DNA of 64,000 nucleotides from a virus, in IMG/VR virus record IMGVR_UViG_3300042691_043547, positions 5,422 to 69,421 of that record. One strand, 5' to 3'. The position numbers were made by a program, and so were the translations under genes. Below the pieces are notes generated by a model that saw only the letters and a program-made list of their open reading frames with translations, did no database searches and had not been told where the DNA came from. Positions 2,353 through 26,783 of this stretch are shown piece by piece (the stretch's first letter is position 1; every line of letters starts with the position of its first letter).

Positions 2353-2635
2353 TGAAGAATCAGAAGAAGCTGGACTTTCCAAGCGTATGGTTGCGCACAA
2401 CCTGGCCCTGCTTGATGCTCTTGCCGAGGCTTCTGAAGCCAAGAAGCGCATGGCTGAAGAGATGGGGAATGTCATCAAGGCGATCCTGATCAAATTCGGG
2501 GGCGAGATCACTTTGGATGGCACCTTCATCGCCGCTGCCGAATCGCCGACCTGCACTTTGAATCACGAGATTCTGTCCAACGGCGAAGCCCTGCGTTTTT
2601 GGGTTGAGGAAGTTGAAGAGGGGGACGACGAATGA
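2345..2635 (+). CDS. small acidic hypothetical protein
   Basis: 96-aa ORF overlapping both neighbours; Glu/Asp-rich termini. Confidence 0.7.
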   Translation: MFDEESEEAGLSKRMVAHNLALLDALAEASEAKKRMAEEMGNVIKAILIKFGGEITLDGTFIAAAESPTCTLNHEILSNGEALRFWVEEVEEGDDE

Positions 2636-3288
2636 CCAACAACATCATCATCTGTTTTGATTTTGAGACCGGCGGTTTGGACATCAAAACCACCGAGCCG
2701 ATTGAGATTGCTGCGGTCGCCATCAACCCCAGGACGCTGTCGGTGGTGCCGGATGGCACCTTCTACAGCCTGTGCAAGCCGACCGATTTCTCTCTGCTGC
2801 AAGACCAGGCGTTGGCCGTCAACGGCAAAACGCGTGATCAGTTGAAGGCGGCTCCCGAACAGGAAGCGGTCTGGCGTTCATTCTGCTCGTTCATCAAGCG
2901 TTTCAACCCGAAGGGAAACAGTTTCACGACGGCCCCCATAGCCGCCGGAAAGAATATCCGCGCCTTTGATTTGCCGATCTTCAGTCGCCTTTGCGCCAAG
3001 TACGGCTTTGCCGACAAGAACGGGGATCAAAACCTGTTCCATCGTCGGAAGGTCTATGACCTAGAGGATTTGCTTGAGTTCTGGTTTCACGACTCCGAGG
3101 AGTTGCCGGATCGCAAGATGGATACCTTGCGCAGGTATTTTGGATTGAGCCGGGACGGGGCGCACTCGGCCATGATTGACACGAAACAGACAGCGGAGTT
3201 GATAGTGCGTTTCCTGAAGGTTCATCGCTATTACGCCGCCAAAATCCCGTTCCGCGGTGCGTGCGCCAAAAACTCGGTGATCATCTGA
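2632..3288 (+). CDS. dnaQ: DEDDh 3'-5' exonuclease (Pol III epsilon-like)
   Basis: ExoI DFETGG, ExoII GKNIRAFD, ExoIII HSAMID; ATGA overlap with the upstream gene. Confidence 0.88.
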   Translation: MTNNIIICFDFETGGLDIKTTEPIEIAAVAINPRTLSVVPDGTFYSLCKPTDFSLLQDQALAVNGKTRDQLKAAPEQEAVWRSFCSFIKRFNPKGNSFTTAPIAAGKNIRAFDLPIFSRLCAKYGFADKNGDQNLFHRRKVYDLEDLLEFWFHDSEELPDRKMDTLRRYFGLSRDGAHSAMIDTKQTAELIVRFLKVHRYYAAKIPFRGACAKNSVII

Positions 3289-4919
3289 TGGCCGAGCATC
3301 ACATGCCCTGCGGTTGTTCTTGGCCCGTTGTCGGCGATCCACCACGCCAGGGGGCATTGCCGCTTCTTGATGTCGATGTCGCCAGCCTGCCGGATTGTCA
3401 TCTGGCCTGGGATATCATGTCGATCGGCAACACCAAGGGCGTGTTCCAACTGGAGAGCCGGTTGGGGGCGACTTGGTCGAAAAAACTGAAGCCCAGAAAC
3501 GACGAGCACCTTTCAGCCTTGGGCGCCCTCTTGCGCCCCGGCTGTCTGGCCGCCAAGGACGAGAACGGCATCAGTCTGACCGAACACTACTGCCGTCGCG
3601 TCAACAAGGAAGAGCCTGCTGACTCGTTCGACCCCGCCTTGGATGACATCCTCGGGCCTACCGAGCAGATTCTGGTTTACCAAGAGCAGTCGATGCAGAT
3701 CGGGGCCAAGCTGGCCGGCTTCGACCTCAAGCAGGTGGACCGTCTGCGCAAGGCAATCGGCAAGAAGGATCAGAAGGAGATGGCCGAGGTCAAGCGGCTT
3801 TTTCTGGAGGGTGCTGAAAAAGTCAAGATTGTCTCCATGGATATAGCAGAAACTATCTGGAGTTGGATTGAGAAGAGCGGGCGCTATCAATTTAATAAAT
3901 CTCATAGTATGAGTTACGGGTTGACCGGGTACGACACCGCCTACCTCAAATCCCATTTCCCGGTGCAGTTCTACACCTCGTGGTTGGCGTTTGCTGAGGA
4001 CAAGGTTGATCCTGACCAGGAAGTCATGGAGTTGGTCGAGGATGCCCGCAGAGCGGGAATCACCGTGTTCCCTCCGGATGTGCGTCACAAACAGATGATT
4101 TTCTGGACGGACGGAGTCGACATCTATTTTGGCTTGTCCAACATCAAGGGGCTGGGGCAGTCGAATCTGCACAAGTTGTTTGAGGTCATGGACAAGGCCG
4201 AGCAGTCTCTGGCCAAAAAAGCCACGGATTTTACCTGGATGGAATGGCTTGTGCATGTCGCCGCAGAAATCCCCTCCGTCAACCACAAGTTGATCATGGC
4301 CGGAGCCTTGGATTGGACCGGAAGAAAGCGTCAATTGATGCTGGCCGAGATTGATGTCGTGGCTTCGCTCACCAAGAAGGAGCAGGCCTGGATTCTCAAG
4401 AATTGCAATGGCGACGAGCCTTTTGTGGATGTCCTGCGTCGTCTGGCCAAACCCAAAAAGGAAGGGGGCGGCGTGGCCAATATCAAGCGTGGTTCGCTGG
4501 TGAACGGCCAGGCCACCCTGCTGGAGCATCCGCCGACCCCGTTGAGCGACCATCCGGCGTGGATGGCGTGGGCCGAGGAGCAGGTCTTCGGATTCGCTCT
4601 GACCTGTTCTCGTGTCGACGGCTGTGATTTGGGTGATGCGAACACGACCTGCGGAGAATTCCTGGCGGGCAAGACCGGGTTCCTGCTGCTGGGCGTTGAG
4701 GTGCGCGGCGTCAGGTCGTTCAAGACAAAGAAGGGAACCATGATGGCGTTCCTTTCTCTATCGGATTCGTCCGGGATGCTGGACGATGTGGTGTGTTTCT
4801 CTGAGCCTTGGGAGGAGTACAAACACCTCCTGACTGAGGGGAACACGGTTTTGGTGCAGGGCGAACGAGACCCCAAGAAAGGTTCGTTGGTCGTGCGCAA
4901 GGTTTTTCAGATGTCATGA
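3288..4919 (+). CDS. dnaE: DNA polymerase III alpha subunit, C-terminal half (fingers, HhH, OB fold)
   Basis: GVFQLES, LLRPG, VYQEQ, LRKAIGKK, YQFNKSHS, YLKSHFP, HhH GLSNIKGLG and OB-fold TKKGTMMAF. Start at ATG 3288 in a TGATG overlap. Confidence 0.93.
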   Translation: MAEHHMPCGCSWPVVGDPPRQGALPLLDVDVASLPDCHLAWDIMSIGNTKGVFQLESRLGATWSKKLKPRNDEHLSALGALLRPGCLAAKDENGISLTEHYCRRVNKEEPADSFDPALDDILGPTEQILVYQEQSMQIGAKLAGFDLKQVDRLRKAIGKKDQKEMAEVKRLFLEGAEKVKIVSMDIAETIWSWIEKSGRYQFNKSHSMSYGLTGYDTAYLKSHFPVQFYTSWLAFAEDKVDPDQEVMELVEDARRAGITVFPPDVRHKQMIFWTDGVDIYFGLSNIKGLGQSNLHKLFEVMDKAEQSLAKKATDFTWMEWLVHVAAEIPSVNHKLIMAGALDWTGRKRQLMLAEIDVVASLTKKEQAWILKNCNGDEPFVDVLRRLAKPKKEGGGVANIKRGSLVNGQATLLEHPPTPLSDHPAWMAWAEEQVFGFALTCSRVDGCDLGDANTTCGEFLAGKTGFLLLGVEVRGVRSFKTKKGTMMAFLSLSDSSGMLDDVVCFSEPWEEYKHLLTEGNTVLVQGERDPKKGSLVVRKVFQMS

Positions 4920-5359: not shown

Positions 5360-6961
5360 ATGGCACGCATCCTTTTGGTTGGCGAGGCGACTTGGTTGCA
5401 GACTGGCTACGCCACTTATGCAAGCCAGATTGCGCACAAACTCCAAGCCGCCGGTCATGAGATCGGGGAGTTGGCTTGTTACGGTGTCCCGAGCGATCCG
5501 AGGCGGGCCTCAAGCCCGTGGCCGGCTTTTTTCGTGACCACGAACACGGACAACTACCCGCCTCTGGCCATCAACCAGTCCAATCCTGCGCTGGGGGCCA
5601 CGATTTTTGAGGAAACGGTTCTGCGCTTCAAGCCGGATGTCGTGATCTCATTGCGTGACCCCTGGCAGGATGCGTTCATTGCCTATTCCCCGTTGCGCCC
5701 CTACTACCGGTGGGTTTTCATGCATCCGGTGGATGGGGAACCGCAGGATGACGAGTGGGTTGCGATCCTCAACCAAACCGATGCCGTGCTCTGTTATTCG
5801 GACTACGGCTTGAATGTGCTGAAGCAGTACCCCGGCCTCAATCTGGCCGGGGTCGCTTCCCCGGGCGCTGAACCGGATGTCTTCTTCCCGCACAGCCAGA
5901 AGGAATCTCGGGAAGCCCTGAACATCCCCCAGGACGCCTTGCTTGTCGGCACGGTGATGCGCAACCAGGCGCGCAAGTTGTACCCGGATCTTTTTGAAAG
6001 TTTCAAGAAGCTGCTGGATACTGCGCCGCCCCACATAGCTGACCGGCTTTATCTGTATTGCCACACGGCCTGGCCCGATGTCGGCTGGGACATGCCCAAA
6101 TATCTGTTGCGTCACAATGTCGCTCACAGAACCCTCTTCACATTCGCTTGCAAGAAGTGCGACCGGGCCTCTGCCCTGCTGTGGCAGCTGCCATCCGGGT
6201 ACTGTCCGTACTGTGCTAGTGGCGAATTGACCACCCCCGGCGTGGCCTCTGGCCTTCCCCGGTCGTTCATGCGGCCGGTGTATTCATCCATGGACATATT
6301 CGTGCAATACTCGGTGTGCGAGGGATTCGGAATGCCACAGGTTGAAGCAGCCTGTTGTGGTGTCCCGGTGATCTCAGTTGACTTCACCGCCATGTCTTCT
6401 GTGGCCTCGGCTATCGGGGCTGAAACCATCCCAGTCCAACGCGCTTTCCCCGAACTGGAAACCGGGCGCATGATGGCGTTGCCAGACAACCATGCCCTGG
6501 TATCCACCTTGACCAACTTCTTTTCGTCGCCGCCCGCATTGCGTCGGGCGATCGGCCAAAAACATAGAGATATGGCTAGTGCTAAATTTAGCTATAGTAA
6601 TGCTGCTTATGTATGGTTAAATGCAATAAATAAATTGCAACAACCAACAAAAAGCTATCAAGATACTAAAACAATATTGCCTAACTTATCTAGACCAGAA
6701 GACTATCTATCAAACAAAGAATGGGTTGACCAAGCTTTTGCGTCGGCTCTCGGTATCTCTTCTGCGCAAGCTGGATATTTGGCGCAAAGGATGTTGCGTG
6801 ATCTTTCTCGTGGTTATTGCGACACGACTTTTGTGCCTTCTCAGTACACAAGCTTTGGCCCCGGCGGCAAGCTAGGAGCTTTCAACCGGGATCATGCCTG
6901 GGATCAACTGTGTGCTGAGCGGCGCAGGATTGAGTTCTGGGAGGAGATGCGGACATCATGA
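5360..6961 (+). CDS. GT-B glycosyltransferase (GT4-like) with CxxC..CxxC insertion
   Basis: TGYATY at N-terminus, RNQARK, EGFGMPQVEAACCGVPVI; CKKC/CPYC insertion. Confidence 0.85.
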   Translation: MARILLVGEATWLQTGYATYASQIAHKLQAAGHEIGELACYGVPSDPRRASSPWPAFFVTTNTDNYPPLAINQSNPALGATIFEETVLRFKPDVVISLRDPWQDAFIAYSPLRPYYRWVFMHPVDGEPQDDEWVAILNQTDAVLCYSDYGLNVLKQYPGLNLAGVASPGAEPDVFFPHSQKESREALNIPQDALLVGTVMRNQARKLYPDLFESFKKLLDTAPPHIADRLYLYCHTAWPDVGWDMPKYLLRHNVAHRTLFTFACKKCDRASALLWQLPSGYCPYCASGELTTPGVASGLPRSFMRPVYSSMDIFVQYSVCEGFGMPQVEAACCGVPVISVDFTAMSSVASAIGAETIPVQRAFPELETGRMMALPDNHALVSTLTNFFSSPPALRRAIGQKHRDMASAKFSYSNAAYVWLNAINKLQQPTKSYQDTKTILPNLSRPEDYLSNKEWVDQAFASALGISSAQAGYLAQRMLRDLSRGYCDTTFVPSQYTSFGPGGKLGAFNRDHAWDQLCAERRRIEFWEEMRTS

Positions 6962-8088
6962 ACGATATCCTCTACATCGGCAATTTTCATGACGGCACCG
7001 GCTACGCCAGAGCCTGCTGTGAGACGGCTGTTGCGCTGGAAGAAGCAGGGGCGAGGGTGGTTTGCCGGCCGATCACCTTCAACGGCGGCGCCCAGCCCTG
7101 CCACGACAAGATCTACGAGCTGGAAGAGCGCAGCATGCCCGCCAGGTTCGACGCGGTCATCCAGCACACCCTGCCTCCCGTCATGAAGTTTGACCGCAGG
7201 CTCGGTTTGAATGTCGCGAATTTTTACTACGAGGCGAGCAGGTTCACTAGCGCCGGCTGGGATCTGCGCCTGAACATGATGGATGTCGTCGTCACCACGC
7301 CGGGAATCTCCACGGCGGCCTGCTCCAACAGCCGTGTCAACAAGCCGACCATCAGCCTGCCCCTCCCCAGCGATGCCCATCGCTATCTGAAAAAGTACCC
7401 GGTGCCAGAGTTCATCCGGCAATACGTCGACGAGAAGAAGTTTGTCTTCTACACGATCGGCGAGAATGTCCGCCGCAAGAATCTTGGCGGTCTGATCAAG
7501 GCCTACTACAGCGAGTTCTTGCCAACTGAAGATGTCGTGCTGGTCATCAAGACAAACGGTGACCCGCGCCATGTCCAGTCGATGATGCGTGAGATCGGGC
7601 AGGGAATGAAGCTGCCTTATCTGCCGGAGATAGTCGTGATCACGGAACGATTGGGAGAAGACCAGTTGATGGGTCTTCACGCCCATGGAACATGTTTTGT
7701 CCAGGCCTCTTGCGGTGAAGCCTGGTCTTATCCGGCCTTTGACGCAATGGCGATGGGCAGGACTCCGGTGGTCCCAGACACCGGAACCTATCGCTCTTAT
7801 ATCTCGGATGAGACTGGCTATCTTGTTCCTGTTTACGACGAGCCGTGCTCGGGCGGTCAGGACGAGTCGGCTGAGCTTTACCGTGGAGACGAACAATGGG
7901 AGGTTCCTTTTACCAAGGATCTGTCCCATGCGATGCGAAGGGCTTACAGGGAGGACGACCAGCGTCGAGCGAAAGCTTCGCTTGGTCTGGAAGTGGCGTA
8001 CCAATTCATCCCCCTGAAGGTCGGTAAGACCTTCCTGGAGGCTCTTAGCCATGAGACGCAAAAACAAGTTGTGGACCGATTTGCTTGA
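6958..8088 (+). CDS. GT-B glycosyltransferase (GT4-like)
   Basis: GTGYARA, FYTIGENVRRKN, GEAWSYPAFDAMAMG. Confidence 0.85.
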   Translation: MNDILYIGNFHDGTGYARACCETAVALEEAGARVVCRPITFNGGAQPCHDKIYELEERSMPARFDAVIQHTLPPVMKFDRRLGLNVANFYYEASRFTSAGWDLRLNMMDVVVTTPGISTAACSNSRVNKPTISLPLPSDAHRYLKKYPVPEFIRQYVDEKKFVFYTIGENVRRKNLGGLIKAYYSEFLPTEDVVLVIKTNGDPRHVQSMMREIGQGMKLPYLPEIVVITERLGEDQLMGLHAHGTCFVQASCGEAWSYPAFDAMAMGRTPVVPDTGTYRSYISDETGYLVPVYDEPCSGGQDESAELYRGDEQWEVPFTKDLSHAMRRAYREDDQRRAKASLGLEVAYQFIPLKVGKTFLEALSHETQKQVVDRFA

Positions 8089-8794
8089 AGATGATAATGA
8101 TCCAGAACTCATTCCGTGGCAACAAGTTAGGGACGCCGATGTCGAAAAAAGGATAGATGCTAAGAAGGCTGTTAAGAAGATCAAAGCAAGGACGCCGAAC
8201 CAACAGAATTACATCAACAACATCGAGGCCTGCACGCTGACGATCTGCACCGGCCCGGCTGGGTGCGGAAAAACCTACATCCCTTGCGGGCTGGCAGCCA
8301 ATTGGTTGAGCGAGAACAAGATCGAGAAAGTCATCCTGACCAGACCGATCGTGGAATGCGGCCAAAGGCTGGGCGCCCTGCCCGGCACGCTCGGGGAAAA
8401 GACCGACCCCTACATGGCTCCGATGTTCGATGCCTTTGGCGACTTCCTCGACCCGGGCTTCCTCAAGCATTGTCGGAACAAGGAGACCATCGAGGTGGTC
8501 CCGCTGGAGACCATGCGTGGCCGGACCTTCCACAATTCGGTGATTATCCTGGACGAGGCCCAGAATGTGACCCGTCGACAGATGAAGATGTTTCTCACTC
8601 GTTTCGGCGAGAACTCCAAAGTGATCGTCTGCGGTGATGTGACCCAGACCGACCTGCCCCATTCCGAGGGTAATCCGCTCATCTGGGTGTGGGACAGGCT
8701 GGGCCATTCTGATATCGCCAAGGTCACTCTGGGGCCGGAGGACGTGCAGCGTCACGGGCTGATCCGGCATATTCTTGAGCGTTTGGGTGACTGA
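8051..8794 (+). CDS. phoH: PhoH-family ATPase
   Basis: Walker A GPAGCGKT, LPGTLGEK, MRGRTF, ILDEAQN, GDVTQTD. Confidence 0.95.
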   Translation: MRRKNKLWTDLLEDDNDPELIPWQQVRDADVEKRIDAKKAVKKIKARTPNQQNYINNIEACTLTICTGPAGCGKTYIPCGLAANWLSENKIEKVILTRPIVECGQRLGALPGTLGEKTDPYMAPMFDAFGDFLDPGFLKHCRNKETIEVVPLETMRGRTFHNSVIILDEAQNVTRRQMKMFLTRFGENSKVIVCGDVTQTDLPHSEGNPLIWVWDRLGHSDIAKVTLGPEDVQRHGLIRHILERLGD

Positions 8795-8859
8795 TCCCTG
8801 TCCGGCATGGGTAAGATCGTTAGCGATGACCATCCGGGTCGTCTCAGCGGATCTTATCC

Positions 8860-9882
8860 ATGCCAGATATTGCCAGCATTCTCAAATCTGCCGTTCGCAA
8901 GCCTGACAGGATTAATGTCCTCACCTTCGTCACGCACGAACGGTACCAGAGCGCCTGGGGCGGGGTGGACGCCAACTTCTTTCTGTGGAATGACGAGAAG
9001 GCCAAGCCGTGGATGCACCAGTATGCGCCCATGCCAGCCAATCACATCCTGCTGCCCTTCCATCCGTCGACGCCCGATGTCCCCGTTGGCATAGATATCG
9101 ATCTGGTGATCACGCACCATCTTAGCCAGTACGACCGGGCTTTACAGGCTGCGACGCATCTGGGTGTTCCGCTGCTGCGCCTAGAACATTGCCTGCCCGA
9201 CGAAACTTGGTCGGAGAGAGACCGCAAGTTCGCCGCCTCCAAGTGCGGAGACTTCAATGTTTTCATAACCAATCACCAGATGCGGGAATGGGGTGGCCGG
9301 GACGGCGATCTGGTTATTTACAACGCCATAGACACGGAGTTGTTCAAGCCCACAGAGGGAGTGCGGCGCGAGCCGGTCTGCCTGAGCGTGGTCAACGACT
9401 GGATCAAGCGCGATTATGTCTGCGGGTTCAGTTTCTGGAAGCTGGCCACGAAGGATCTTCCTGTCCGCGTGCTGGGCGACACTCCGGGGCTTTCCAGGGC
9501 AGCCGCCAACGTGGAAGAGCTGGCTGGCGCCTATCGCAGTTCGCTGCTGTTCCTCTGCACGGCCACCAACAGTTCCCTGCCGACAACCGTCCTGGAAGCC
9601 ATGGCGTCCGGATGTTGCGTCGTTGCTTACAGGGCCACGGCCATCGAGGAAGCCATCGAGCATGGAGCAAACGGTTTTCTGGTGGACAGCCCCGAAGAGA
9701 TGAACGCCACCGTCAAGAGACTGATGGCCAACCCGTCGTACTGCGAGATGATCGGCGCAGCAGCCAGACAAAAGGCTGTCGGTCGCCACAACCTGAGTGT
9801 TTTTGTGGAGAAATGGAACCAGGCCCTGCGTCTGGCCGTAGACGCCCCGTGGTGGAGGAAACAATGGTCAAGTTGCGCTTGA
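8860..9882 (+). CDS. GT-B glycosyltransferase (GT4-like)
   Basis: IYNAIDTELFKP, PTTVLEAMASGCCVV, IEHGANGFL. Confidence 0.87.
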   Translation: MPDIASILKSAVRKPDRINVLTFVTHERYQSAWGGVDANFFLWNDEKAKPWMHQYAPMPANHILLPFHPSTPDVPVGIDIDLVITHHLSQYDRALQAATHLGVPLLRLEHCLPDETWSERDRKFAASKCGDFNVFITNHQMREWGGRDGDLVIYNAIDTELFKPTEGVRREPVCLSVVNDWIKRDYVCGFSFWKLATKDLPVRVLGDTPGLSRAAANVEELAGAYRSSLLFLCTATNSSLPTTVLEAMASGCCVVAYRATAIEEAIEHGANGFLVDSPEEMNATVKRLMANPSYCEMIGAAARQKAVGRHNLSVFVEKWNQALRLAVDAPWWRKQWSSCA

Positions 9883-10313
9883 GTGTGGGCGACTCAAAGA
9901 TGAGCCTGCCCGGGTTTGTCCAGATTGATCCGCTGAGCCAGGAGAATCCCGGTAATCCTGCCGATCTGTCGAGACATGCCGAGGAAGGTGAGGCCCTTGA
10001 GATCGTAGCCGCCGATGTCTTGGATTTTTATCCAGGAGAGTTTCGTCACCGCCTGCTGGGCCATTGGGTCTCCAGGCTGAGTCGCGGCGGCGTGATTTTG
10101 GTCGGCACCCGTGAAATCGTCGAAGTTTGTCGCCATGTCATGCTTGGGGAAGCGAACAGCTTCGGCCAGCTGGTCTTCGGTTCCGGTGGTCAGCGACGCC
10201 AGAGCGCGGGAACACTTCCCGAGTTGAAATCCATGCTCTCGCTGATGGGCACGACCCTTGTTCGTTCCTATGTCAAAGACTTCATGAGTTATGTGGAGGC
10301 CGTCCGTGATTAG
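9864..10313 (+). CDS. short SAM-methyltransferase-like protein (type 11-like, degenerate)
   Basis: GGAGG SD then ATG 9864. KLRLSVG..PGFVQID..EIVAADVLDF..W.SRL.RGG.I resembles the small MTases of glycan clusters. Confidence 0.55.
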   Translation: MVKLRLSVGDSKMSLPGFVQIDPLSQENPGNPADLSRHAEEGEALEIVAADVLDFYPGEFRHRLLGHWVSRLSRGGVILVGTREIVEVCRHVMLGEANSFGQLVFGSGGQRRQSAGTLPELKSMLSLMGTTLVRSYVKDFMSYVEAVRD

Positions 10314-11103
10314 TACATCGTGTCACAATTGTCGTTTCATCATCAAGGACGATAAGGGCGACCAGACCGGCTGCCAGGCAGACATACTCAAGCGTTTTCT
10401 GGACGAAGGCAAAGCCGAACTGGAAACGATTGAAGACACCAAGTCCTACAAAACGACCAATTGTTTTTGTCCGATGTTCCGTCCCGCCGACTGGATGGCG
10501 GACCTCGACCACCAACAGGCGGTTGCGGAGGCCCGTCGTGAGCGGACGCTGGCGGTGGCCTCTCTGGTCTCCTGTGAGAAAGGCGAGTTGTCGGATGTGG
10601 CCCGGACAGCCGAGATGCTGGAGCAACAGAAGCTCAAGCCGACCGAGGTTGTTTTCGTGATCACCGCCCGATCCAAGGTCAAGCCGAAAGATGTCCTCGC
10701 AACCCTGCGCGACCTTGATCTTTCCTACCAGTACTCGCTGCGTTTCGTCATGGATTCGTCCTACACCGAGCTGGACGCCCTCCAGGAAGGGGTCGGCAAC
10801 AACCTGAAATCGGTTTTCATCCTCTTCGTCGAGGCTGGACAACCTCTGGAGAATTGCTACCTGGCCGATCTGGACTATCTGATCAATGATCAGAATCAAC
10901 GGGTCGTATTGGTCGATCCCGGCAAAATCCACGGCATGCTTGTGCAGACCATGGCCTTCAACATGGTGGGCGGATTCCATGAGGTGGTCTGGGAGGAAAC
11001 CGAGGAAAAAATCGCCAGCGTCGCAGAAAAACTGAAACGCATCGCCAAAAGCCAGAATTCGCAGTACCTGATTCTAGACGGGGAACTTCCCCATGTCGCT
11101 TGA
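10306..11103 (+). CDS. hypothetical protein, Cys-rich N-terminus, possible GT-A-like remnant
   Basis: GGAGG SD then GTG 10306; CHNCRF...GC...C.C motif; packed in the operon. Confidence 0.65.
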   Translation: MISTSCHNCRFIIKDDKGDQTGCQADILKRFLDEGKAELETIEDTKSYKTTNCFCPMFRPADWMADLDHQQAVAEARRERTLAVASLVSCEKGELSDVARTAEMLEQQKLKPTEVVFVITARSKVKPKDVLATLRDLDLSYQYSLRFVMDSSYTELDALQEGVGNNLKSVFILFVEAGQPLENCYLADLDYLINDQNQRVVLVDPGKIHGMLVQTMAFNMVGGFHEVVWEETEEKIASVAEKLKRIAKSQNSQYLILDGELPHVA

Positions 11104-11842
11104 CCGGGTTTCGGTGGTTATAGCCAACCACAACTACGGTCACTTCCTGCCGGAAGCCATCGATTCGGCCGTCGCCGAAAAGCCGGGTCGCATCGTCATT
11201 GTTGACGATGGATCAACTGATGACTCGGTGAGCGTTGTTTTTCGCAAGCTGTCTGACGCAGCCGAGGAGGATCATGCCGGCGTGCCCTCGCTGGTCGGAC
11301 ATATCGACGGCGTGCAAATCCGCTTGTTTTCAGCGCATGAGTCGCGTGGACCTGCCGCTGCCCGCAACTGGGGGATGCGTGTCGCCTGGGATCAGACAGA
11401 TTACTTTGCCGTTCTTGATGCCGACGACAGGTTCCTGAGAGGCAGGCTCACGGCCTGCGTCGAATTGCTGGAAAAGTACGGGGAGTCAGCCGGTGCGGTT
11501 TATACGGATTATTACCATGTGCGCAATGGTGTTCATTTTCGTCACTGCAAAAAGTCGTTCGTAAAACGCGAACTTGCTTTTGACAACATGGTCCACTCGG
11601 CCTGTGTCATCCGGAAATCCGTGCTGGATGAAACCGGCCTGTATGACGAATCCATGCCGCCAGCCGAAGACTACGAGTTGTGGATGAGGATCGCCAAGAA
11701 CCGAGTCATCCTACATTTGCCAGAGGCAATGATGGATGTGAACGAGGGAGAATACCAGCTTTCGCGTCGGACCAAGTCTGACTTTTACGCCAAGCAACTA
11801 CAAACTCTCAGGGAGCGACATTGTCAGAGCTTGTTGTCGTAA
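11093..11842 (+). CDS. GT-A glycosyltransferase (GT2)
   Basis: VSVVIANHNY, IVDDGSTD, GPAAARNWG, LDADD, EDYELW. Confidence 0.93.
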   Translation: MSLDRVSVVIANHNYGHFLPEAIDSAVAEKPGRIVIVDDGSTDDSVSVVFRKLSDAAEEDHAGVPSLVGHIDGVQIRLFSAHESRGPAAARNWGMRVAWDQTDYFAVLDADDRFLRGRLTACVELLEKYGESAGAVYTDYYHVRNGVHFRHCKKSFVKRELAFDNMVHSACVIRKSVLDETGLYDESMPPAEDYELWMRIAKNRVILHLPEAMMDVNEGEYQLSRRTKSDFYAKQLQTLRERHCQSLLS

Positions 11843-12525
11843 TATCAGCCGCTGGCGCCGGTCGGCGCATGAAGGCCAGGGGGCCTAAGGCCCTCATTGA
11901 CATCGGCGGTGGCGAAACCGTGCTGAGCAGGCAGTTGGCGCTGGCAAGAAAAGCCATGCCAAACGCCGAATTGGTCGTGGTGGTCGGCTACCAGAAAGAA
12001 AAGGTGGTCAAGACCCTGCCGAAGGATGTTCGCTGGGTGGACAATACCGACCACGAGCAAACCAATGTGGCCCGTTCCCTGCTGATGGGCATGTCCGAAT
12101 GCCAGGCGCGCCGGGCGGTGCTGATGTGCGGCGACCTAGTCTTCGGCCCTGATTTTCTGTCGAGCATGCCGGATGATGGCTCGGCTGCCGTGATTGACGA
12201 GAACCACAACCATCGCTCCTCGGAAGTCGGCTGCAACATCGATCAGGGCCGCATCTGCCATTTCAGCTACGGCGTCTGGCCAAAATGGGGGCAGGCCGTG
12301 ATCCTCGGCGACAAGGAGCTTGAGCTTTACCGACGGATCGCCTCCAGAGACCAATGCGCACGCTGGTTCGCCTACGAGGTGCTGAACGCCGTCATTGATG
12401 CTGGGGGCGTGATTTCACCGACCTACCCCAAGAAATCCTATCTGGTCGAAATCGACAGCACCCAGGACATCGACAGGGCGAAGAGCATGGTTAGTAAATT
12501 GCGTCGGAAGGGAGTGGTTGCATGA
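11821..12525 (+). CDS. sugar/phospho-nucleotidyltransferase (NTP_transferase, LicC/HddC-like)
   Basis: AAGAGRRM..GPKAL, VVVVGY, GDLVF, EIDSTQD. Confidence 0.85.
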   Translation: MSELVVVISAAGAGRRMKARGPKALIDIGGGETVLSRQLALARKAMPNAELVVVVGYQKEKVVKTLPKDVRWVDNTDHEQTNVARSLLMGMSECQARRAVLMCGDLVFGPDFLSSMPDDGSAAVIDENHNHRSSEVGCNIDQGRICHFSYGVWPKWGQAVILGDKELELYRRIASRDQCARWFAYEVLNAVIDAGGVISPTYPKKSYLVEIDSTQDIDRAKSMVSKLRRKGVVA

Positions 12526-13316
12526 ATGTCCTGATTGTCAACGACGACAACGGTGTTGGCAGCGGCGCCTTGGCCCATGGATTTGCCGCACTCAAGCATG
12601 ATGTCGCCATGTGGTCTCCGGAAAAGATGCCGGCCTACCAGGCTTTCGACAGACAAAAGCCCGATCTCTTTATCGGGCCGACCTCCTCCTACACTCCAGC
12701 CGTGCAGCGGTCGGTTGGGAAAAGCCGGCTGGCCCTCTGGCAGGACGAGAGCACATTCTTCCAAGAAACGCCCGCAAATGTGTTTCTTTTTTCCGTCAGC
12801 GAGGAAAACGGCGACCTGCCCTACATCCCGTGGCCCTACCTGCCACTGGCCGAGACCCCCTATCGGGACGAGATGGCCACAGACATCCTGTTCCTTGACG
12901 AGTACCGTCCCGGGTTCGATGCTTTTTTCATGCCTCTCTTTGAGAAAGAAGGGGTTGTGGCCAGGATTCACAGCAAAAAACCTTGGCCCGTACCCTATTA
13001 TGCTGGCACTCTTGACCAGCGCGAGAGAACCGTCGCCATCGCTTCCACCATCGTTTGCCCAATGTATGCCGACGAGTCCAGAGACATCCGCAAGATGTAC
13101 GAAATCGTCAGAGCCGGGGCGGTGCCCATGGCGGTGGGCGACGATAAACTGCTTCCCTACGGTGGCAAGCCAGACGGCTACATCGAACTGATGCTTGAGA
13201 TCATCCACGATCGCGGTTCCAAGGAAAGAATCAACAGCTATCTCGTCGACCTGTTCTCGATGAACAATCCTGTTGACACGGCGGAAACCCTCCTGAGGAC
13301 AATGGTCACATGCTGA
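12522..13316 (+). CDS. hypothetical protein, possible divergent GT-B
   Basis: MNVLIV.. GFAALKHDV ..KPDLFI N-terminal pattern; glycan cluster context. Confidence 0.55.
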   Translation: MNVLIVNDDNGVGSGALAHGFAALKHDVAMWSPEKMPAYQAFDRQKPDLFIGPTSSYTPAVQRSVGKSRLALWQDESTFFQETPANVFLFSVSEENGDLPYIPWPYLPLAETPYRDEMATDILFLDEYRPGFDAFFMPLFEKEGVVARIHSKKPWPVPYYAGTLDQRERTVAIASTIVCPMYADESRDIRKMYEIVRAGAVPMAVGDDKLLPYGGKPDGYIELMLEIIHDRGSKERINSYLVDLFSMNNPVDTAETLLRTMVTC

Positions 13317-13933
13317 GCCTTATTCTTGACAAGCCGCACAATCTAGATGTGTTGTGCCGCTGCCTGTCCATGGTTGCCGCCTACCGCCCGTCCCCTGAGA
13401 CCGAAGTGATCGTGCCTTGGGACGGTCTGCCCAGGGATATCCTGCCGATCCTGAAGGCGTTCAGCTCACGCTTTTTCTGGAAGCTAGGCCTGTGCCCGCA
13501 GGATTACGCCGGGTACCTTGCTGTCGCACACCTGGCCAAATCCGAGCGGCCCGTGTTCATGAGTCATCGCCTGCTGATAACGGGTGAGGCCTTGTCTGTC
13601 CTAGAGGCATCCGAGACCGGCAGGGCTTGCGTCTACAGGACGGATGGCATGCTGTTGGAGTACGACCCGTACAGCTACTGGTTCCCGGAGGGGTATCGGC
13701 AAAACTGCCTGAGAATGCCGCACCAGACACCGGAAGTGCAGGCCGATCAAAACCCATACTGCGTGATCGGAGCCGGTTCGGCAACCGCGGTGGCTGAGCT
13801 TCCTTTTGTCGACGCCCAGGTGTTCCTGATGGAGGGACCGCCGGTATCGGTCGGGCAGCCTGTGCCCGGAGAGATTCCCTTCCTGTCCAGCACCGACACC
13901 CCGTGTTTCCCGCCCGATGCAGATCGAGTTTGA
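13310..13933 (+). CDS. hypothetical protein (possible degenerate GT-A)
   Basis: ORF overlaps both neighbours; no intact motif. Confidence 0.55.
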   Translation: MLSLILDKPHNLDVLCRCLSMVAAYRPSPETEVIVPWDGLPRDILPILKAFSSRFFWKLGLCPQDYAGYLAVAHLAKSERPVFMSHRLLITGEALSVLEASETGRACVYRTDGMLLEYDPYSYWFPEGYRQNCLRMPHQTPEVQADQNPYCVIGAGSATAVAELPFVDAQVFLMEGPPVSVGQPVPGEIPFLSSTDTPCFPPDADRV

Positions 13934-14606
13934 CCACATCGAGGGCTGGGGCAAGATCACCCAGCACGACCTGATCCACTCCCCCTGCTGGGTCATCCGG
14001 GAGGAAGAGTCACACGATCAGATGCTGGAGATGGGATTCCTGCCCTGGGCCGGCAAGTGGTTCCCGGCACGCTCGGTTCGCTACGATCTGGAACGGATGA
14101 CCTTCGGGCGCACAGTCGAAAAGAGTTTCCGCAAGGCCCTCAAGACCGCCAGCTGGCACGAGGAGAGGCCCGATATGGACGCTTACGAGCGGATCGTGGC
14201 TAGTTATCTCGTCCGGCACCAGTTCGCCAGCGGGCATGTCTTTGAGGAGTTGGCGGCCAACCGGGAGTTTTCCTGGCTGACCTACAGGGTGGACGGCAGC
14301 GCGGTCGCCTTTCTGGCCTACCTGAGTTATCCCCGCTCCTTTGTCGGCGTGCAGTTCGCCTGGGACTATGGCGACCCCAAGCTCTCCCTCGGCTCGGTTA
14401 GTACCTATGTCGAGGCCATGCTGGCCCGGTCAAACGGCTGTCGCTGGTACTACGTCATGGGAGGCTATGAGAATGCCAGCATCTACAAGGCACGCCACGA
14501 AGGTTTTGAGTTCTGGACCGGCAAGGAATGGTCGAAAGACACAGACCTCTACATCCAACTCTGTGAGCGAGACTCGAGGATCACATACGAAAATGTTTGT
14601 TCTTGA
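13917..14606 (+). CDS. ATE/Bpt-like aminoacyl-tRNA-protein transferase (GNAT fold)
   Basis: QFAWDY..PKLSLG..STYVE...A...G..WYYVMGGYE...IYKA matches the ATE_C signature (YD....LSLG....E...A...G..Y.YLG......YK). Confidence 0.72.
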   Translation: MQIEFDHIEGWGKITQHDLIHSPCWVIREEESHDQMLEMGFLPWAGKWFPARSVRYDLERMTFGRTVEKSFRKALKTASWHEERPDMDAYERIVASYLVRHQFASGHVFEELAANREFSWLTYRVDGSAVAFLAYLSYPRSFVGVQFAWDYGDPKLSLGSVSTYVEAMLARSNGCRWYYVMGGYENASIYKARHEGFEFWTGKEWSKDTDLYIQLCERDSRITYENVCS

Positions 14607-14799
14607 GCCAAAGCAATCGCTGGAAGTGGAAACTCCCAAAGGCAAGGGGCGGGTTTGGCTCGTCACCGACTACGGGCCGGAAACGGAGAAGCTGTTTGCG
14701 GTCATCCTTTACGAATCGGGTGAAATCTGGGAGTTCACCAACAAGGATGTCAAGGCCACAAAAAACCTGACCATGGGGCGGGGGAGCTGGTCGAAATGA
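14593..14799 (+). CDS. small hypothetical protein
   Basis: MFVLEPKQSLEVETPKGKG...; overlaps both neighbours. Confidence 0.65.
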   Translation: MFVLEPKQSLEVETPKGKGRVWLVTDYGPETEKLFAVILYESGEIWEFTNKDVKATKNLTMGRGSWSK

Positions 14800-15530
14800 G
14801 AATCGCATTTGCGCCCTACATACTGACCTTGGTCGGCACCGATCAATGCGGAACCGTCGACGGCGAAATCCATACCATCAAGGTGGCCTTGCGATCCGGC
14901 GTCTGGGCCGTCCGTCACAAGGAGCGGGTCCAATGCTTTCAGGATTTCCCGGACGCCCATCTCAGCCAGGATCTGTCCTGCAACCTGTCCACCAAAATCT
15001 TGCAGGATGACAGCTGGTATCCGGGTAAGGTGGACATATCGGAGAGCATCGACGAGATATGCGCTCGTGCCGGAGGCCTTGTGTCGCTGGCTAAGGACAG
15101 CATCGGTGTCAATGGCCCGTTCGTGTTGCCGTTCGGCGAGGGCCTGGAGAAAAACGGCATCCTGCTCCGGGTTGACGGGAATTCGACCAACTGGCAAAAG
15201 CCGATTGAACCCAGGCACGCCACCAGCCTGACCATCATGGCTGGGATGCTGGTCAAGAACATGGCCGCTGGCGATTGGGAAAAAGCCGGGGATGTGCTGG
15301 AGCAGTCCTGGAAGCTCGTCCGGGAGGAGGCACCGGCAGAGATTATCCGCGCCTACGCCGACGCCAGGATGAACGGGGCGTGGGGGTGTGTCTGGTGCGG
15401 AGACAACACATTGTTCTGTCTGGCTTCTCCAGAATGGCACGGTTCGATCTCCGGCATAGTCGGGGTGGAAAAACTGCCGTTCCAAATCAGCTATCAGGGG
15501 GCGGGTCTGAGGGCTGCGCTGAAGCCATGA
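14796..15530 (+). CDS. degenerate GHMP sugar-phosphate kinase-like protein (HddA-like)
   Basis: APYILTLVGTD resembles HddA APLRIS..GGGTD; PFGEGLEKN sits where PxGxGLGSS is expected; C-terminal Y..A...GAWG...G. Confidence 0.5.
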   Translation: MRIAFAPYILTLVGTDQCGTVDGEIHTIKVALRSGVWAVRHKERVQCFQDFPDAHLSQDLSCNLSTKILQDDSWYPGKVDISESIDEICARAGGLVSLAKDSIGVNGPFVLPFGEGLEKNGILLRVDGNSTNWQKPIEPRHATSLTIMAGMLVKNMAAGDWEKAGDVLEQSWKLVREEAPAEIIRAYADARMNGAWGCVWCGDNTLFCLASPEWHGSISGIVGVEKLPFQISYQGAGLRAALKP

Positions 15531-15979
15531 GAGTCCAATTCCTCGTCCCGACACTGGCGTCTTCGCATCAGGCACTAGCCCTTGTCCATTGTGGCAACGA
15601 GCTTGTTCGGAAAGGTCACGAGGTGCATGTCTTTGTGGAAGACAAGGGGGCGCCCCCTTCCAGACCCCACTTCCCCGTGTTTGATGCCGCCTATGCGTAC
15701 ACGCAACCGGGTCCGCTGATCGTCACGACGCTCTCAAGCCTGGCTTTGGCCGTGAACTCGCCGATCAAACGGGATGTCTGGTTCTACGCCTGGGATATGG
15801 AGTGGCTGAATGGCCAAGCCTTCGCTTGGCGAGACCTGCATCCGATGTATACTGCCGTTCCCCTGATTGCAAGATCGGATCATCACAGACGCATCCTACA
15901 GAACACTTGGGGAAAAAACGTGAGCCATATTGTCGAAGATTTCAGCGCAGATCAGATTGAGAGGCTGTTATGTCCATGA
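15527..15979 (+). CDS. GT-B N-terminal-domain-like protein
   Basis: ATGA overlap; NELVRKGHEVHVF, IVTT and WFYAWDME resemble WsaF-type GT N-domains; no donor-binding domain. Confidence 0.55.
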   Translation: MRVQFLVPTLASSHQALALVHCGNELVRKGHEVHVFVEDKGAPPSRPHFPVFDAAYAYTQPGPLIVTTLSSLALAVNSPIKRDVWFYAWDMEWLNGQAFAWRDLHPMYTAVPLIARSDHHRRILQNTWGKNVSHIVEDFSADQIERLLCP

Positions 15980-16752
15980 CCTACGAGTATCTTGTCGAGG
16001 AGTACGTCAACAAACAGAGGTCGACCCACGAGATTGCCGAGGAGCTTGGGACCTATCCCAACCGTGTCCGCCGGGCACTGAACAAGTTCGGCATCCCCGT
16101 CCGCAGTCGCTCCGAGGCCCAGCTGGTCGCTCTGGAGCAGGGCCGGCAGGAACATCCCACCAGAGGCAAGAAACTGTCCCCCGAACGCAAAGTCCAGATC
16201 GGCGAGAGGATGGCCGAGCAGTGGGGATCGATGTCCGACGAGGAACGGAAGCGTCGTTCGGAAATTTCCAAGAAACAATGGGAGACCATGGACGAGGGGC
16301 GAAGGGAATCGTTGCAGAAGAAAGCCCTGGACGCTGTGCGTGTCGCCGCCGATACCGGCAGTCGCCTAGAAAAATACCTGATCCGCGGCCTGACTCAAGC
16401 CAAGTATCCGGTGGATTTCCATGTCCAATTGGACCGCCAGCATATCGACATGGTTGTTGGCCGTAAAGTCGGTCAGTTTAAGGGGATAGCGATCGAAGTC
16501 AACGGTCCTTCCCACTACAAACCGATCTGGGGCGACGATTATTATGAAAAAAGAGCGGCCTCTGATGCGAAGAAGGTAGGGATGCTCGTCGGAAGTAACT
16601 TCCTAGTGATCATTATCAAAGACACCAAAGGAAGTCCTTCTGAAATTCGTATGAGAACTACTTTACAAAAGCTGTTGAGCATCATAGAATTGGCGAAGAC
16701 CGACCCCGGGGTGGGGTCATATCACGAGATTGAGGTGGGTGTCGATGGCTAA
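15970..16752 (+). CDS. HTH + NUMOD3-like + PD-(D/E)xK (DUF559/RAP-like) endonuclease
   Basis: N-terminal HTH (STHEIAEELG..VRRALNKFGIP), HPTRGKKLS..K..I.E basic region, IDM...IAIEVNGPSHY. Confidence 0.7.
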   Translation: MSMTYEYLVEEYVNKQRSTHEIAEELGTYPNRVRRALNKFGIPVRSRSEAQLVALEQGRQEHPTRGKKLSPERKVQIGERMAEQWGSMSDEERKRRSEISKKQWETMDEGRRESLQKKALDAVRVAADTGSRLEKYLIRGLTQAKYPVDFHVQLDRQHIDMVVGRKVGQFKGIAIEVNGPSHYKPIWGDDYYEKRAASDAKKVGMLVGSNFLVIIIKDTKGSPSEIRMRTTLQKLLSIIELAKTDPGVGSYHEIEVGVDG

Positions 16753-18214: not shown

Positions 18215-18447
18215 GGTTGAATCCTCGTTCGTTCATCAGTCACTTCACCTTTAATCGGCCCACCGGCTAGGGCGCCACGCAAGTTACGCATCAGGCCAGC
18301 AACCAGAGGGCCAATCTCGGGTTGATATCCGCCCCACTCACAGAAGGGCAGTCTTTCTTCGAGCGTCGACAGGAAAGCGTCTGCCGCTGCCCATCCCGCC
18401 ATTTCCACGGCGTCTCGAATGTCCTTGGGGAAGTCTTCCAGTCGCAT
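18211..18447 (-). CDS. small hypothetical protein
   Basis: ATG 18447 in a TGATG overlap with the GT2 gene. Confidence 0.55.
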   Translation of the reverse strand: MRLEDFPKDIRDAVEMAGWAAADAFLSTLEERLPFCEWGGYQPEIGPLVAGLMRNLRGALAGGPIKGEVTDERTRIQP

Positions 18448-19484
18448 CAGACTTCCTCGTAGTCGTTGCAGTTTTGACAGCAGCGAATCCCATCGCCGTA
18501 ATCCCTGAACGGACGGCATTTCTCGTGAAGCTCGCACTTGTAGACGAACTTGAGCGGGCAGTTGCAGTCCCCCGTGTCGATCGGAGTGCTACTCCGGTGG
18601 AAACAGGGCAGGGTCCGTCGAACTGTTTTGATGGTGCGAAAGCGTTCAGGAAAAACACCCTGGTTTGGGTCAACGGCTTCGGCTTCCGCAAGCACATTGT
18701 TGAAGTTGGCCTCGGGCACTTTGGGACGGAAATGTTCAACCACATCCTCGTAGGACAGGCCGAGTTCACGGCGACCAACGACATAGTTGAAAATTCTGTC
18801 TTCCAAAAACAGGCGATAGGGGACACCCTTGGGTCGGCCGAACCGGTGCAGCCAGGTCATCCAGGGAACACACATCGCCTCGCCGCCGAACTTGCGGACC
18901 TTGGAATGTATATACCCCTCCTCGCCACCGAAGCCCCTGAACAGGGTGTTGAAGCCTGGCCACTCCTCCTTGCACATCATGAACTGGCCGAGGCCCTGCA
19001 TGGGGATCGGGAACGGCTCACCAAGCTTCACTCTTTCGTCTGTCGCCCAGGTGCCGTACATGCTGTCCCGCCAGGTCGGGTTAAAATGCGTGGCCATGTT
19101 GATGTGGTCGTCGTACAACAACGGGCCTTGGTAGAGGTTCTTCCTCCCGGCCTCGCCGGAACGGATGAACTCCTTGGTCTTGGCGACCACCCCTTGCGTC
19201 AACAGAACATGGCTGTCAACACACATCACCCACTCGCCCTGAGCCTCTTCAAAGACGAGTTGGCGCGGCAGCGAGGTGCCGGTGGCGTGGCCCCTGTGCA
19301 GGTAACGGGCCTTGGCCCATTCGGCGGCGCTCTTGGTGTGTGGGCAGCCATTGGGCAGATTGTCCACCACCAGCAACTCGACATCGTTCAGGTCGTGATA
19401 GGCCCGCAACGCTTGCAGGGTGAAGTAGACCCCGTCGTAATCGTCGTAGGTCGCCATCCCGATAGTTAGAAGTGGTTCCGCCAT
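18447..19484 (-). CDS. GT2 glycosyltransferase with Cys-rich C-terminal domain
   Basis: LTIGMATYDD, LLVVDN, CVDSH, GFGGEE; tail C.HR..CNC..CELH..C..CCQNC. Confidence 0.85.
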   Translation of the reverse strand: MAEPLLTIGMATYDDYDGVYFTLQALRAYHDLNDVELLVVDNLPNGCPHTKSAAEWAKARYLHRGHATGTSLPRQLVFEEAQGEWVMCVDSHVLLTQGVVAKTKEFIRSGEAGRKNLYQGPLLYDDHINMATHFNPTWRDSMYGTWATDERVKLGEPFPIPMQGLGQFMMCKEEWPGFNTLFRGFGGEEGYIHSKVRKFGGEAMCVPWMTWLHRFGRPKGVPYRLFLEDRIFNYVVGRRELGLSYEDVVEHFRPKVPEANFNNVLAEAEAVDPNQGVFPERFRTIKTVRRTLPCFHRSSTPIDTGDCNCPLKFVYKCELHEKCRPFRDYGDGIRCCQNCNDYEEV

Positions 19485-26181: not shown

Positions 26182-26783
26182 TAATTGCCTCCTATAGTCA
26201 GATCAAGAGAACCGGTGCCCACGCCAGTACCCGCCGTGATCATGGCCAGCGACCCGCTGCTTCCAGCCGGACCAGCCAAATACAATACGCAGCCAGCACT
26301 GGCTTCCTGGGCATAGCCGGTCACCGTCAGCGGCAACATGGAAAAGGCTTCAGGCGTGCGCCAGACCACGAGATTCAAGCCGGTGCCGAAGACTGGGGCT
26401 TCCAAAATCAACGGCAATGCGTTTTCCACCAATTCGGTGGCACTATTGACTGTCACCAGAGACAATGAACCCGAAAGGTTCTTGTTGGCTCCTTCGACAA
26501 ACAAATTCATGTTTTGTTGGCTATCAGATTTATTACACAAGATATATAAATTTAACCCCTTGCCATAAGCCTTACCACTAACGACTAGGGGGAGCGTGTT
26601 GGCGACGCCGGAAAATACGCCAAGGGTGTGGAGTGGCAGCGAATTCCCACCCGAAGGTATCTCGGTGACCTTCAGGAACAGATTCAACGACTCCCAGGAA
26701 AGCGACTCGCCGCCAAACCCGAGGACTAGTCCCCCGGGTGTGGCGAGTATGTCCCCCAGCCTGCCCGTGAAGACACTCATCAC
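26181..26783 (-). CDS. minor tail protein with short repeats (L.L...G)
   Basis: Directly follows the TMP; repeating 'LNL/LPL..G' units. Confidence 0.65.
   Translation of the reverse strand: MMSVFTGRLGDILATPGGLVLGFGGESLSWESLNLFLKVTEIPSGGNSLPLHTLGVFSGVANTLPLVVSGKAYGKGLNLYILCNKSDSQQNMNLFVEGANKNLSGSLSLVTVNSATELVENALPLILEAPVFGTGLNLVVWRTPEAFSMLPLTVTGYAQEASAGCVLYLAGPAGSSGSLAMITAGTGVGTGSLDLTIGGN

Follow-up and report, generated by a model that had tools for sequence, protein, structure and literature searches.

Mini-ATE, a compact phage-encoded relative of ATE1 and Bpt and a probable tRNA-dependent aminoacyl transferase

Entry into the Arg and Leu N-degron pathways is by way of the enzymes ATE1 and Bpt, and the wider class to which these belong, the tRNA-dependent aminoacyl transferases, is, to our knowledge, small and cellular. 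What a phage would do with such an enzyme, and onto which acceptor it would load an amino acid, is the question raised by a 64,000-nucleotide (nt) stretch of viral DNA (the window; positions 5,422 to 69,421 of IMG/VR record IMGVR_UViG_3300042691_043547). The original prediction had placed here an ATE/Bpt-like aminoacyl-tRNA transferase inside a glycan cluster, and had proposed that it either tags host proteins at N-terminal Asp/Glu for N-degron proteolysis or aminoacylates the glycan or nucleotide made by its neighbors. From comparisons of sequence and predicted structure, we put the probability at roughly two in three that this protein, here called mini-ATE, is a tRNA-dependent aminoacyl transferase of the ATE1/Bpt branch with a remodeled acceptor site. 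The gene, an ATG-started open reading frame (ORF) whose ends fall exactly at the coordinates given, and the relevant parts of its product are as follows.

13917..14606, + strand: mini-ATE gene, 229 amino acids (aa), stop codon included
13917..14096, + strand: N-terminal beta-rich lobe, residues 1-60, putative ATE_N remnant without the metal site, residues 9-20 being of low confidence (model and hhalign)
14040..14045, + strand: codons for L42-P43, at the 'RR' of the Bpt/ATE1 motif G(F/W)RRSG (codons verified; alignments)
14100..14156, + strand: basic segment, residues 62-80, whose helix (65-77 in the model) is presumed to bind the tRNA acceptor arm
14271..14531, + strand: GNAT catalytic core, residues 119-205 (motifs QFAWDY..PKLSLG and Y.Y..GGYE....YK....GFEFWTG.EW; invariant columns)
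14412..14414, + strand: codon for E166, aligned to klAte1 Glu277 of the Arg side-chain pocket (HMMER alignment)
14487..14489, + strand: codon for K191, aligned to the catalytic lysine, klAte1 Lys304 and FemX Lys305 (HMMER alignment)

Homology to ATE1 and Bpt

Taken singly, the mini-ATE protein falls below the Pfam cut-offs, scoring 21.6 bits for Acetyltransf_6 (cut-off, 22) and 20.7 bits for ATE_C (cut-off, 25). No family was found in a scan of the PHROGs, a PADLOC match of 13.7 bits (E = 0.006) was judged to be noise, and a single-sequence search of solved structures returned only a chance match to citrate synthase (E = 0.76). Among 101 homologues from a word-indexed search that yielded 182 candidates, 90 carried a precomputed match to PF04377 (ATE_C). 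Using a profile of 48 family sequences (alignment A1, on which all residue counts below are also based), five ATE1 chain sets were matched among all Protein Data Bank (PDB) sequences, at E values from 7e-8 (yeast) to 3e-7 (K. lactis) and 34 to 36 bits, with residues 121 to 195 forming the part aligned at 7e-8; nothing besides ATE1 was found there below an E value of 0.03, where the next match stood. When A1 was aligned by hhalign with eight canonical Bpt sequences from GTDB genomes (A2; ATE_N was found in 17 of the 41 genomes sampled), a probability of 96.7% and an E value of 3.2e-10 were obtained over 188 columns, pairing mini-ATE residues 18 to 207 with Bpt residues 29 to 236. The Bpt profile scored ATE1 at 83 to 111 bits, against only 34 to 36 bits for the phage family profile. 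Judged from these alignments, the mini-ATE family is homologous to ATE1 and Bpt, and the ATE_C-like signature originally claimed for the protein is real, being weak in the single sequence and firm once relatives are included.

An AlphaFold2 model made with A1 had a mean predicted local distance difference test score (pLDDT) of 86.1 and a predicted template modeling score (pTM) of 0.83, with poor prediction only at residues 9 to 20. In a Foldseek search of the PDB, all matches listed above rank 33 were ATE1 chains (E about 1e-8), followed by Sba18/Sbb17, aaPGS/MprF, and FemX. VIA-align was run against 48,161 representative chains and gave the following Z scores.

Human ATE1: Z 15.0, 213 residues aligned (model 1-221)
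KlAte1: Z 13.7, 217 residues aligned
L-PGS: Z 12.6
MprF: Z 12.5
FemX: Z 11.9
Sbb17: Z 10.4
First acyl-coenzyme A (acyl-CoA) GNATs: Z 10.2 and below
Aat: Z 8.6

The best structural match in both searches is thus ATE1 and not an acyl-CoA GNAT, and the next known enzymes are also aminoacyl-tRNA transferases, which supports the assignment made at the outset; the predicted fold of mini-ATE is of the ATE1/Bpt type. Among the viral structures of the BFVD, the top match was an uncharacterized 143-aa protein, with nothing annotated close.

The first 17 nt of the mini-ATE gene overlap the stop-codon end of its upstream neighbor, and its last 14 nt overlap a 68-aa ORF downstream. The ratio of nonsynonymous to synonymous substitution rates (dN/dS) was 0.149 against the orthologue at viral locus L001 and 0.093 against that at L015 (84 to 86% nucleotide identity), low values which argue that mini-ATE is a real gene under purifying selection. 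Its source record is a linear IMG/VR virus fragment of 69,421 bases, estimated by CheckV to be 47% complete, and a split DNA polymerase and baseplate and virion proteins lie nearby, bearing out the description of the gene as phage encoded.

Catalytic core, donor pocket, and N-terminal lobe

In a study of klAte1 (Kim et al. 2022, PMC9351520), Lys304, equivalent to FemX Lys305, is catalytic, and arginine is bound in a pocket of Ser255, Ser273, Glu277, and Tyr289, for which Bpt has Ala, Ala, Gln, and Leu, respectively; the E277K variant is inactive and E277D is like the wild type. In our HMMER alignments, the chain index minus 4 reproduced every klAte1 residue identity named there, and the residue mapping is therefore secure. 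The equivalences, with their counts among the 48 family sequences, are as follows.

klAte1 Lys304: K191, Lys in 48/48
klAte1 Glu277: E166, Glu in 45/48
klAte1 Ser255: G144, Ser in 18, Gly in 17, Ala in 12
klAte1 Ser273: S162, Ala in 29, Ser in 15
klAte1 Tyr289: Y178, Met in 17, Tyr in 16, Val in 13

A second acidic residue, E185, was found in 45 of the 48 sequences, Y97, Q146, W149, and Y184 are also conserved, and three outlier sequences lose E166, E185, and the L-P motif of residues 42 and 43 jointly. The pocket closest to that of ATE1, G-S-E-Y, is the one carried by the window's clade and its nearest neighbors, with A-A-E-V or S-A-E-M in other clades; at the Glu277 position, the eight Bpt sequences have Gln in five cases, Glu in two, and Thr in one. 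A basic amino acid is the probable donor, with Arg-tRNA as the first candidate, because the family retains the ATE1-type Glu and the window's clade agrees with ATE1 at three of the four pocket positions. If the register assumed for this segment holds, a near-invariant L156, in the loop around the invariant G159, stands at the Q/R of the CoA pyrophosphate motif that follows strand 4 in acyl-CoA GNATs.

The median net charge is +5 over residues 62 to 80 and -3 over the protein as a whole. Lys or Arg occupies positions 65, 68, 69, 72, and 73, which lie on one face of the helix (in 43, 38, 47, 44, and 40 of the 48 sequences, respectively). By its position in the alignment, the helix at residues 65 to 77 would correspond to the alpha3/alpha-f tRNA helix. 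A positively charged tRNA-binding helix is described as a hallmark of aminoacyl-tRNA transferases in PMC9351520 and by Abeywansha et al. 2023 (PMC10115844), and the former sets these enzymes apart from other GNATs by the catalytic Lys together with the basic helix; both hallmarks were found in the mini-ATE family.

The acceptor side is where the family departs from its relatives. Using hhalign, residues 18 to 60 were paired with Bpt residues 29 to 79, the Cys segment of Bpt falling exactly into a gap of 8 residues, and the first 17 residues of the phage protein, where Bpt has C20 and Y22, were unaligned; G40, W48, R52, and R55 are invariant in the mini-ATE family. According to PMC9351520, the zinc finger of klAte1 consists of Cys23, Cys26, Cys95, and Cys96, with Tyr25 and Tyr87 also named, and a positive charge at Arg80 is essential for acting on N-terminal Asp/Glu. 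The Cys95/Cys96 segment maps to the 'C..C..C' stretch of Bpt, which is the 8-residue gap of the phage family. No Cys-rich column was present in the N-terminal lobe of the 48 sequences, which have zero to three Cys within their first 70 residues, and a search of the record for ATE_N (PF04376) gave no match, so that the shortened N domain without a Cys cluster noted originally is confirmed. As controls, C20, Y22, R53, R54, Y60, C64, C67, C70, and R74 were each conserved in all eight Bpt sequences. Arg80 of klAte1 is the first R of GFRRSG, equivalent to Bpt R53, and aligns to L42 of the phage protein; column 42 holds Leu in 33 sequences, Ile in 10, and other residues in 5, with no Lys or Arg among the 48, and column 43 is Pro in 42 of the 48. 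As the alignments show, the metal site and the acid-reading Arg have both been lost in the mini-ATE family. Some relatives are automatically annotated as 'arginyl-tRNA--protein-N-Asp/Glu arginylyltransferase', a name that is argued against because the Arg80 equivalent is missing. According to PMC10115844, tRNA recognition is common to the group and the acceptor-sensing domains diverge, and the ATE1 zinc finger contributes both to the binding of tRNA and to holding the substrate channel open.

Distribution and genomic context

When 1.84 billion representatives were searched exhaustively with HMMER, 143 clusters (at 50% identity) matched the family with E <= 0.001, of which 79 had E <= 1e-10. 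The proteins are approximately 225 to 265 aa long, and no longer protein with a domain fusion was found, none of 5,735 candidates having scored, which is weak evidence; a 955-aa RTX-repeat protein (P0220) was rejected as a member, its match being shown by Pfam to be due to chance. At least 508 loci in IMG/VR were confirmed as relatives from 599 pattern-matched stretches, and neither the window protein nor P0072, a distant member, gave a tblastn hit in the 50,697 phage records of GenBank. In prokaryotes, represented by one genome per species (approximately 185,000), a pattern-based scan, by which divergent members can be missed, led to the confirmation of 8 of 25 candidates, all of them on contigs of metagenome-assembled genomes (MAGs) from scattered phyla; this fits viral contigs having been binned into MAGs. 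Large and diverse, the mini-ATE family is essentially viral, and all phages in which it is known are uncultivated. Full-text literature searches, judged by titles and abstract openings, returned no description of a viral ATE-like enzyme.

Contigs with near-identical copies of window positions 12522-15530 (83 to 100% of sampled words) were identified in 20 public runs, which belong to 13 studies and are labeled as lake water, freshwater, or 'fungus' metagenomes and dated 2019 to 2025, 11 of which may be the source sample; this recurrence suggests a persistent freshwater phage. No RNA data were listed among the matching runs. Two mini-ATE loci (L004 and L012) lie approximately 150 kb apart in one viral record of 221,321 bases, with the same genes downstream and different ones upstream; this record may consist of two related genomes joined, or may be a concatemer.

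As an N-degron role would involve ClpS, both partners were sought in each other's records. Of 24 records that carry the mini-ATE family, 3 had ClpS (PF02617) above the cut-off, all of them among the 8 with a completeness of at least 86%. ClpS lay approximately 10 kb from mini-ATE in each case and was not found in G046, a complete close relative of 149 kb. Conversely, the phage ClpS family was present in 77 viral contigs; among the 17 ClpS-carrying records that reach 40 kb, mini-ATE was found in 3, and among the 5 of these with a completeness of at least 90%, in 2. ClpS as a family-wide partner is thus rejected in both directions, and neither ClpP nor Aat (PF03588) was found in any of five complete family-carrying records. 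The phage ClpS-like proteins are themselves 84 to 86 aa long, score above the Pfam cut-off, and are encoded directly after an ORF of 363 to 381 aa (L100, positions 1492-1746; L102, positions 1489-1749; L103-L179); no description of a phage-encoded ClpS was found in the literature listing searched.

The neighborhood of the gene in the window comprises the following features.

5360..13933, + strand: upstream context of glycosyltransferase (GT)-type genes, a PhoH gene, a nucleoside triphosphate (NTP)-transferase gene, and unknowns (Pfam, PHROG)
5360-6961, 6958-8088, and 8860-9882, + strand: GT1-type genes (Pfam, PHROG)
8051-8794, + strand: PhoH gene (Pfam, PHROG)
11093-11842, + strand: GT2 gene (Pfam, PHROG)
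11821-12525, + strand: NTP_transf_3 gene (Pfam, PHROG)
12522-13316, + strand: GT-B-like candidate (atlas lead only)
13310-13933, + strand: GT2-like candidate (atlas lead only)
14593-14799, + strand: downstream ORF, 68 aa
14796-15530, + strand: downstream ORF, 244 aa, overlapping the preceding one

The last six genes of the upstream run overlap one another by 4 to 22 nt, and the two downstream ORFs have no Pfam, PHROG, or PADLOC family. With GT1, GT2, and NTP_transf_3 genes in an overlapping same-strand run, the gene does lie inside a glycan cluster in this window, as had been stated. To place this context in the family, 80 of the viral loci and the window (81 in all) were surveyed over 8 kb on either side of the gene, with ORFs called and clustered. 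The window's six upstream genes recurred only in L001, L002, L003, and L015, giving 5 of 81 loci; phmmer searches with six of the window's cluster proteins, limited to single-sequence sensitivity, found relatives in 6 of 81. As L003 keeps all six genes at 58% mini-ATE protein identity, the glycan link is specific to one clade and persists there to that level of identity. Other clades have mini-ATE in no fewer than three different settings: with a PD-(D/E)XK exonuclease and PhoH upstream and a 170-aa unknown, terminase, and portal downstream; adjoining a pyrimidine-dimer-glycosylase-like gene and a PNK/HAD phosphatase; or followed by small genes without known function and a tail-fibre-like gene. 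The recurrent neighbor clusters, which also include a GroES-like protein, DUF3310, an HU-like protein, cobalamin adenosyltransferase, and several unknowns, are heterogeneous and none is common to all contexts; a conserved partner gene was therefore rejected.

Of the 81 loci, 15 have a PhoH-like gene upstream of mini-ATE (the window and L020, L021, L028, L033, L054, L055, L065, and L078 among them). The two genes share a strand in 13 of these, at a distance of approximately 5 kb in the window's clade and of 93 to 355 nt in another clade. PhoH is common in phages, so this association may be background. A tRNA-Arg(TCT) gene was found in the flanks of 6 of the 34 loci scanned among the 80 (L036, L045, L049, L050, L056, and L057), followed by tRNA-Met in 4 of the 34; tRNA-Arg(TCT) is among the commonest phage tRNAs, and its presence was not used as evidence. 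No tRNA genes were found within the window.

Further features of the window include an HNH-endonuclease/DNA-binding-like ORF within the same-strand operon (15970-16752; phrog_8446, E = 3.6e-10) and, just beyond this + strand operon, another GT2-type glycosyltransferase on the - strand (18447-19484; Pfam, 30.6 bits). The DNA polymerase (phrog_405) is split into ORFs at 394-2352 (profile positions 41-615) and 3261-4919 (profile positions 634-1074), between which lies an RNase_T-type exonuclease ORF (2632-3288). Three giant ORFs of 3,864, 1,800, and 1,347 aa occupy the - strand among the virion and baseplate genes (26780-38374, 47944-53346, and 56016-60059, respectively), and the G+C content falls to 0.40 to 0.43 at 28 to 32 kb, inside the largest of these, against 0.55 to 0.58 in the glycosyltransferase region.

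Candidate reactions and known systems

If mini-ATE is an aminoacyl transferase, a charged tRNA would be bound at its acceptor arm by the basic helix (residues 65-77), its aminoacyl group would be held in the pocket of G144, S162, E166, and Y178, and K191 would stabilize the tetrahedral intermediate as a primary amine of the acceptor attacks the aminoacyl ester. The acceptor side would have been rebuilt by deletion of the Cys metal site and replacement of the acid-reading Arg by Leu/Ile-Pro, changes that argue against the canonical Asp/Glu N-degron reaction. Most probably a different amine is aminoacylated, and our leading guess for the acceptor is a non-acidic N-terminus of a protein or peptide of host or phage. 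Dependence on tRNA, the identity of the donor, and the class of acceptor are what we infer; purifying selection and the wide viral spread argue that the predicted enzyme is active.

Several points weigh against this interpretation. Beyond the subthreshold Pfam scores of the single protein, the NCBIfam arginyltransferase equivalogs score mini-ATE at 13.9 bits and nine homologues at no more than 46.7 bits, so that the whole range of 13 to 47 bits stays below the cut-offs of 170 to 358. The predicted pocket varies by subclade (G-S-E-Y, A-A-E-V, or S-A-E-M), and the choice of donor leans mainly on one Glu that, being also found in two of eight Bpt, is no perfect marker of an Arg donor. Given the role of the zinc finger described in PMC10115844, its loss could mean a different mode of tRNA binding, or none. 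Neither a conserved partner gene nor a domain fusion points to an acceptor, and acyl-CoA GNATs reach Z scores of about 8 to 10 against the model.

The last of these points bears on whether mini-ATE could be an ordinary acyl-CoA-dependent GNAT acyltransferase that resembles ATE_C, as the slightly higher score of Acetyltransf_6 over ATE_C in the single sequence would also allow. This is very unlikely, since the aminoacyl-tRNA transferases outrank all acyl-CoA enzymes in both structure searches, the family profile matches only ATE1 among solved structures, and the FemX/ATE1 catalytic Lys and the basic helix, absent from other GNATs according to PMC9351520, are conserved. The loss of acceptor-recognition elements might instead indicate a protein without catalytic activity, which would bind charged tRNA or some host protein and so sequester it; we regard this as highly improbable, as a catalytic Lys that is invariant, and a pocket Glu nearly so, down to 25 to 30% identity would be unexpected in a pseudoenzyme.

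Two further readings accept a transferase and differ in the acceptor. A canonical N-degron enzyme would place Leu or Arg on host N-terminal Asp/Glu and so direct proteins to degradation by ClpS/ClpAP (by way of host Aat if Arg), as the near full-length homology to Bpt and ATE1 and the ClpS-like gene in 3 of 24 family-carrying records would suggest; however, with Leu or Ile at the Arg80 equivalent (0/48 basic), the metal site deleted, ClpS absent from G046 and from 21 of the 24 records and coupled in only 3 of 17 in reverse, and ClpP and Aat in none of five, this first of the originally proposed roles is improbable and its N-degron tagging of Asp/Glu was not upheld. The second, which in the window's lineage would be tRNA-dependent aminoacylation (probably with Arg or Lys) of a glycan, nucleotide-sugar, or glycosylated DNA or virion, was likewise not upheld in the form proposed. 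In its favor, mini-ATE is part of a same-strand glycosyltransferase/NTP-transferase operon of at least seven genes with tight overlaps, the six upstream members of this operon are kept in L003 at 58% protein identity, the acceptor site is no longer of the ATE1/Bpt type, and the next-best structural relatives all use nonprotein acceptors: FemX acts on UDP-MurNAc-pentapeptide and MprF on lipids. Against these stand the restriction of this context to 5 (synteny) or 6 (phmmer) of the 81 loci, an identical G-S-E-Y pocket in the next clade (P0009-P0018), loci at 43 to 45% identity (L004-L014) without nearby glycosyltransferases, and a best whole-length match that is a protein-modifying enzyme; operon synteny in close relatives may also reflect shared ancestry alone. 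The glycan cluster holds in one clade, and a glycan or nucleotide acceptor is unlikely.

The reading that we prefer, a tRNA-dependent transferase with a remodeled acceptor site, would, if the enzyme is active, mean that phages divert charged tRNA into posttranslational or other aminoacylation during infection, and would offer a natural minimal scaffold for the evolution of acceptor specificity in this enzyme class. Were the glycan role true, the product would be a viral glycoconjugate modified by tRNA-dependent aminoacylation, a chemistry that we know of from no virus.

Among known systems, Aat is likewise a small bacterial N-degron aminoacyl-tRNA transferase with a GNAT-like fold, but it is a much weaker structural match (Z 8.6). 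FemX, aaPGS (the MprF C-terminal domain), and Sba18/Sbb17 share with mini-ATE the GNAT-based aminoacyl-tRNA class, the catalytic Lys, and the basic tRNA helix (Z 10.4 to 12.6); they differ in acting on peptidoglycan precursors, lipids, or small molecules and in their accessory domains, and their lower-scoring alignments mostly cover the GNAT core only (for L-PGS, model residues 42-202). Bpt (ATE_N plus ATE_C; NCBIfam NF002341-NF002347) is of similar size, with 235 to 270 aa against 229 aa, and has colinear homology, the GNAT core motifs, the catalytic Lys, the basic segment after the N-terminal lobe, and R74 as the counterpart of R55. However, its four invariant Cys are missing from mini-ATE through the 8-residue deletion, its 'RRSG' is replaced by '(L/I)P', its donor-pocket position is mostly Gln where mini-ATE has Glu, and it is cellular whereas mini-ATE is viral. 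ATE1 (PDB 7WFX/7WG4, 7TIF, 8E3S, and 8TZV) is the best structural match over nearly the whole of mini-ATE and shares Lys304, Glu277, Ser273, and Tyr289 (K191, E166, S162, and Y178), but mini-ATE is less than half its length, has Gly for Ser255, and is without the C4 zinc finger, the Arg80 equivalent, the large insertions, and the C-terminal region. Mini-ATE would thus be a compact version of these enzymes, in which the tRNA- and donor-handling half has been kept and the acceptor-reading half discarded.

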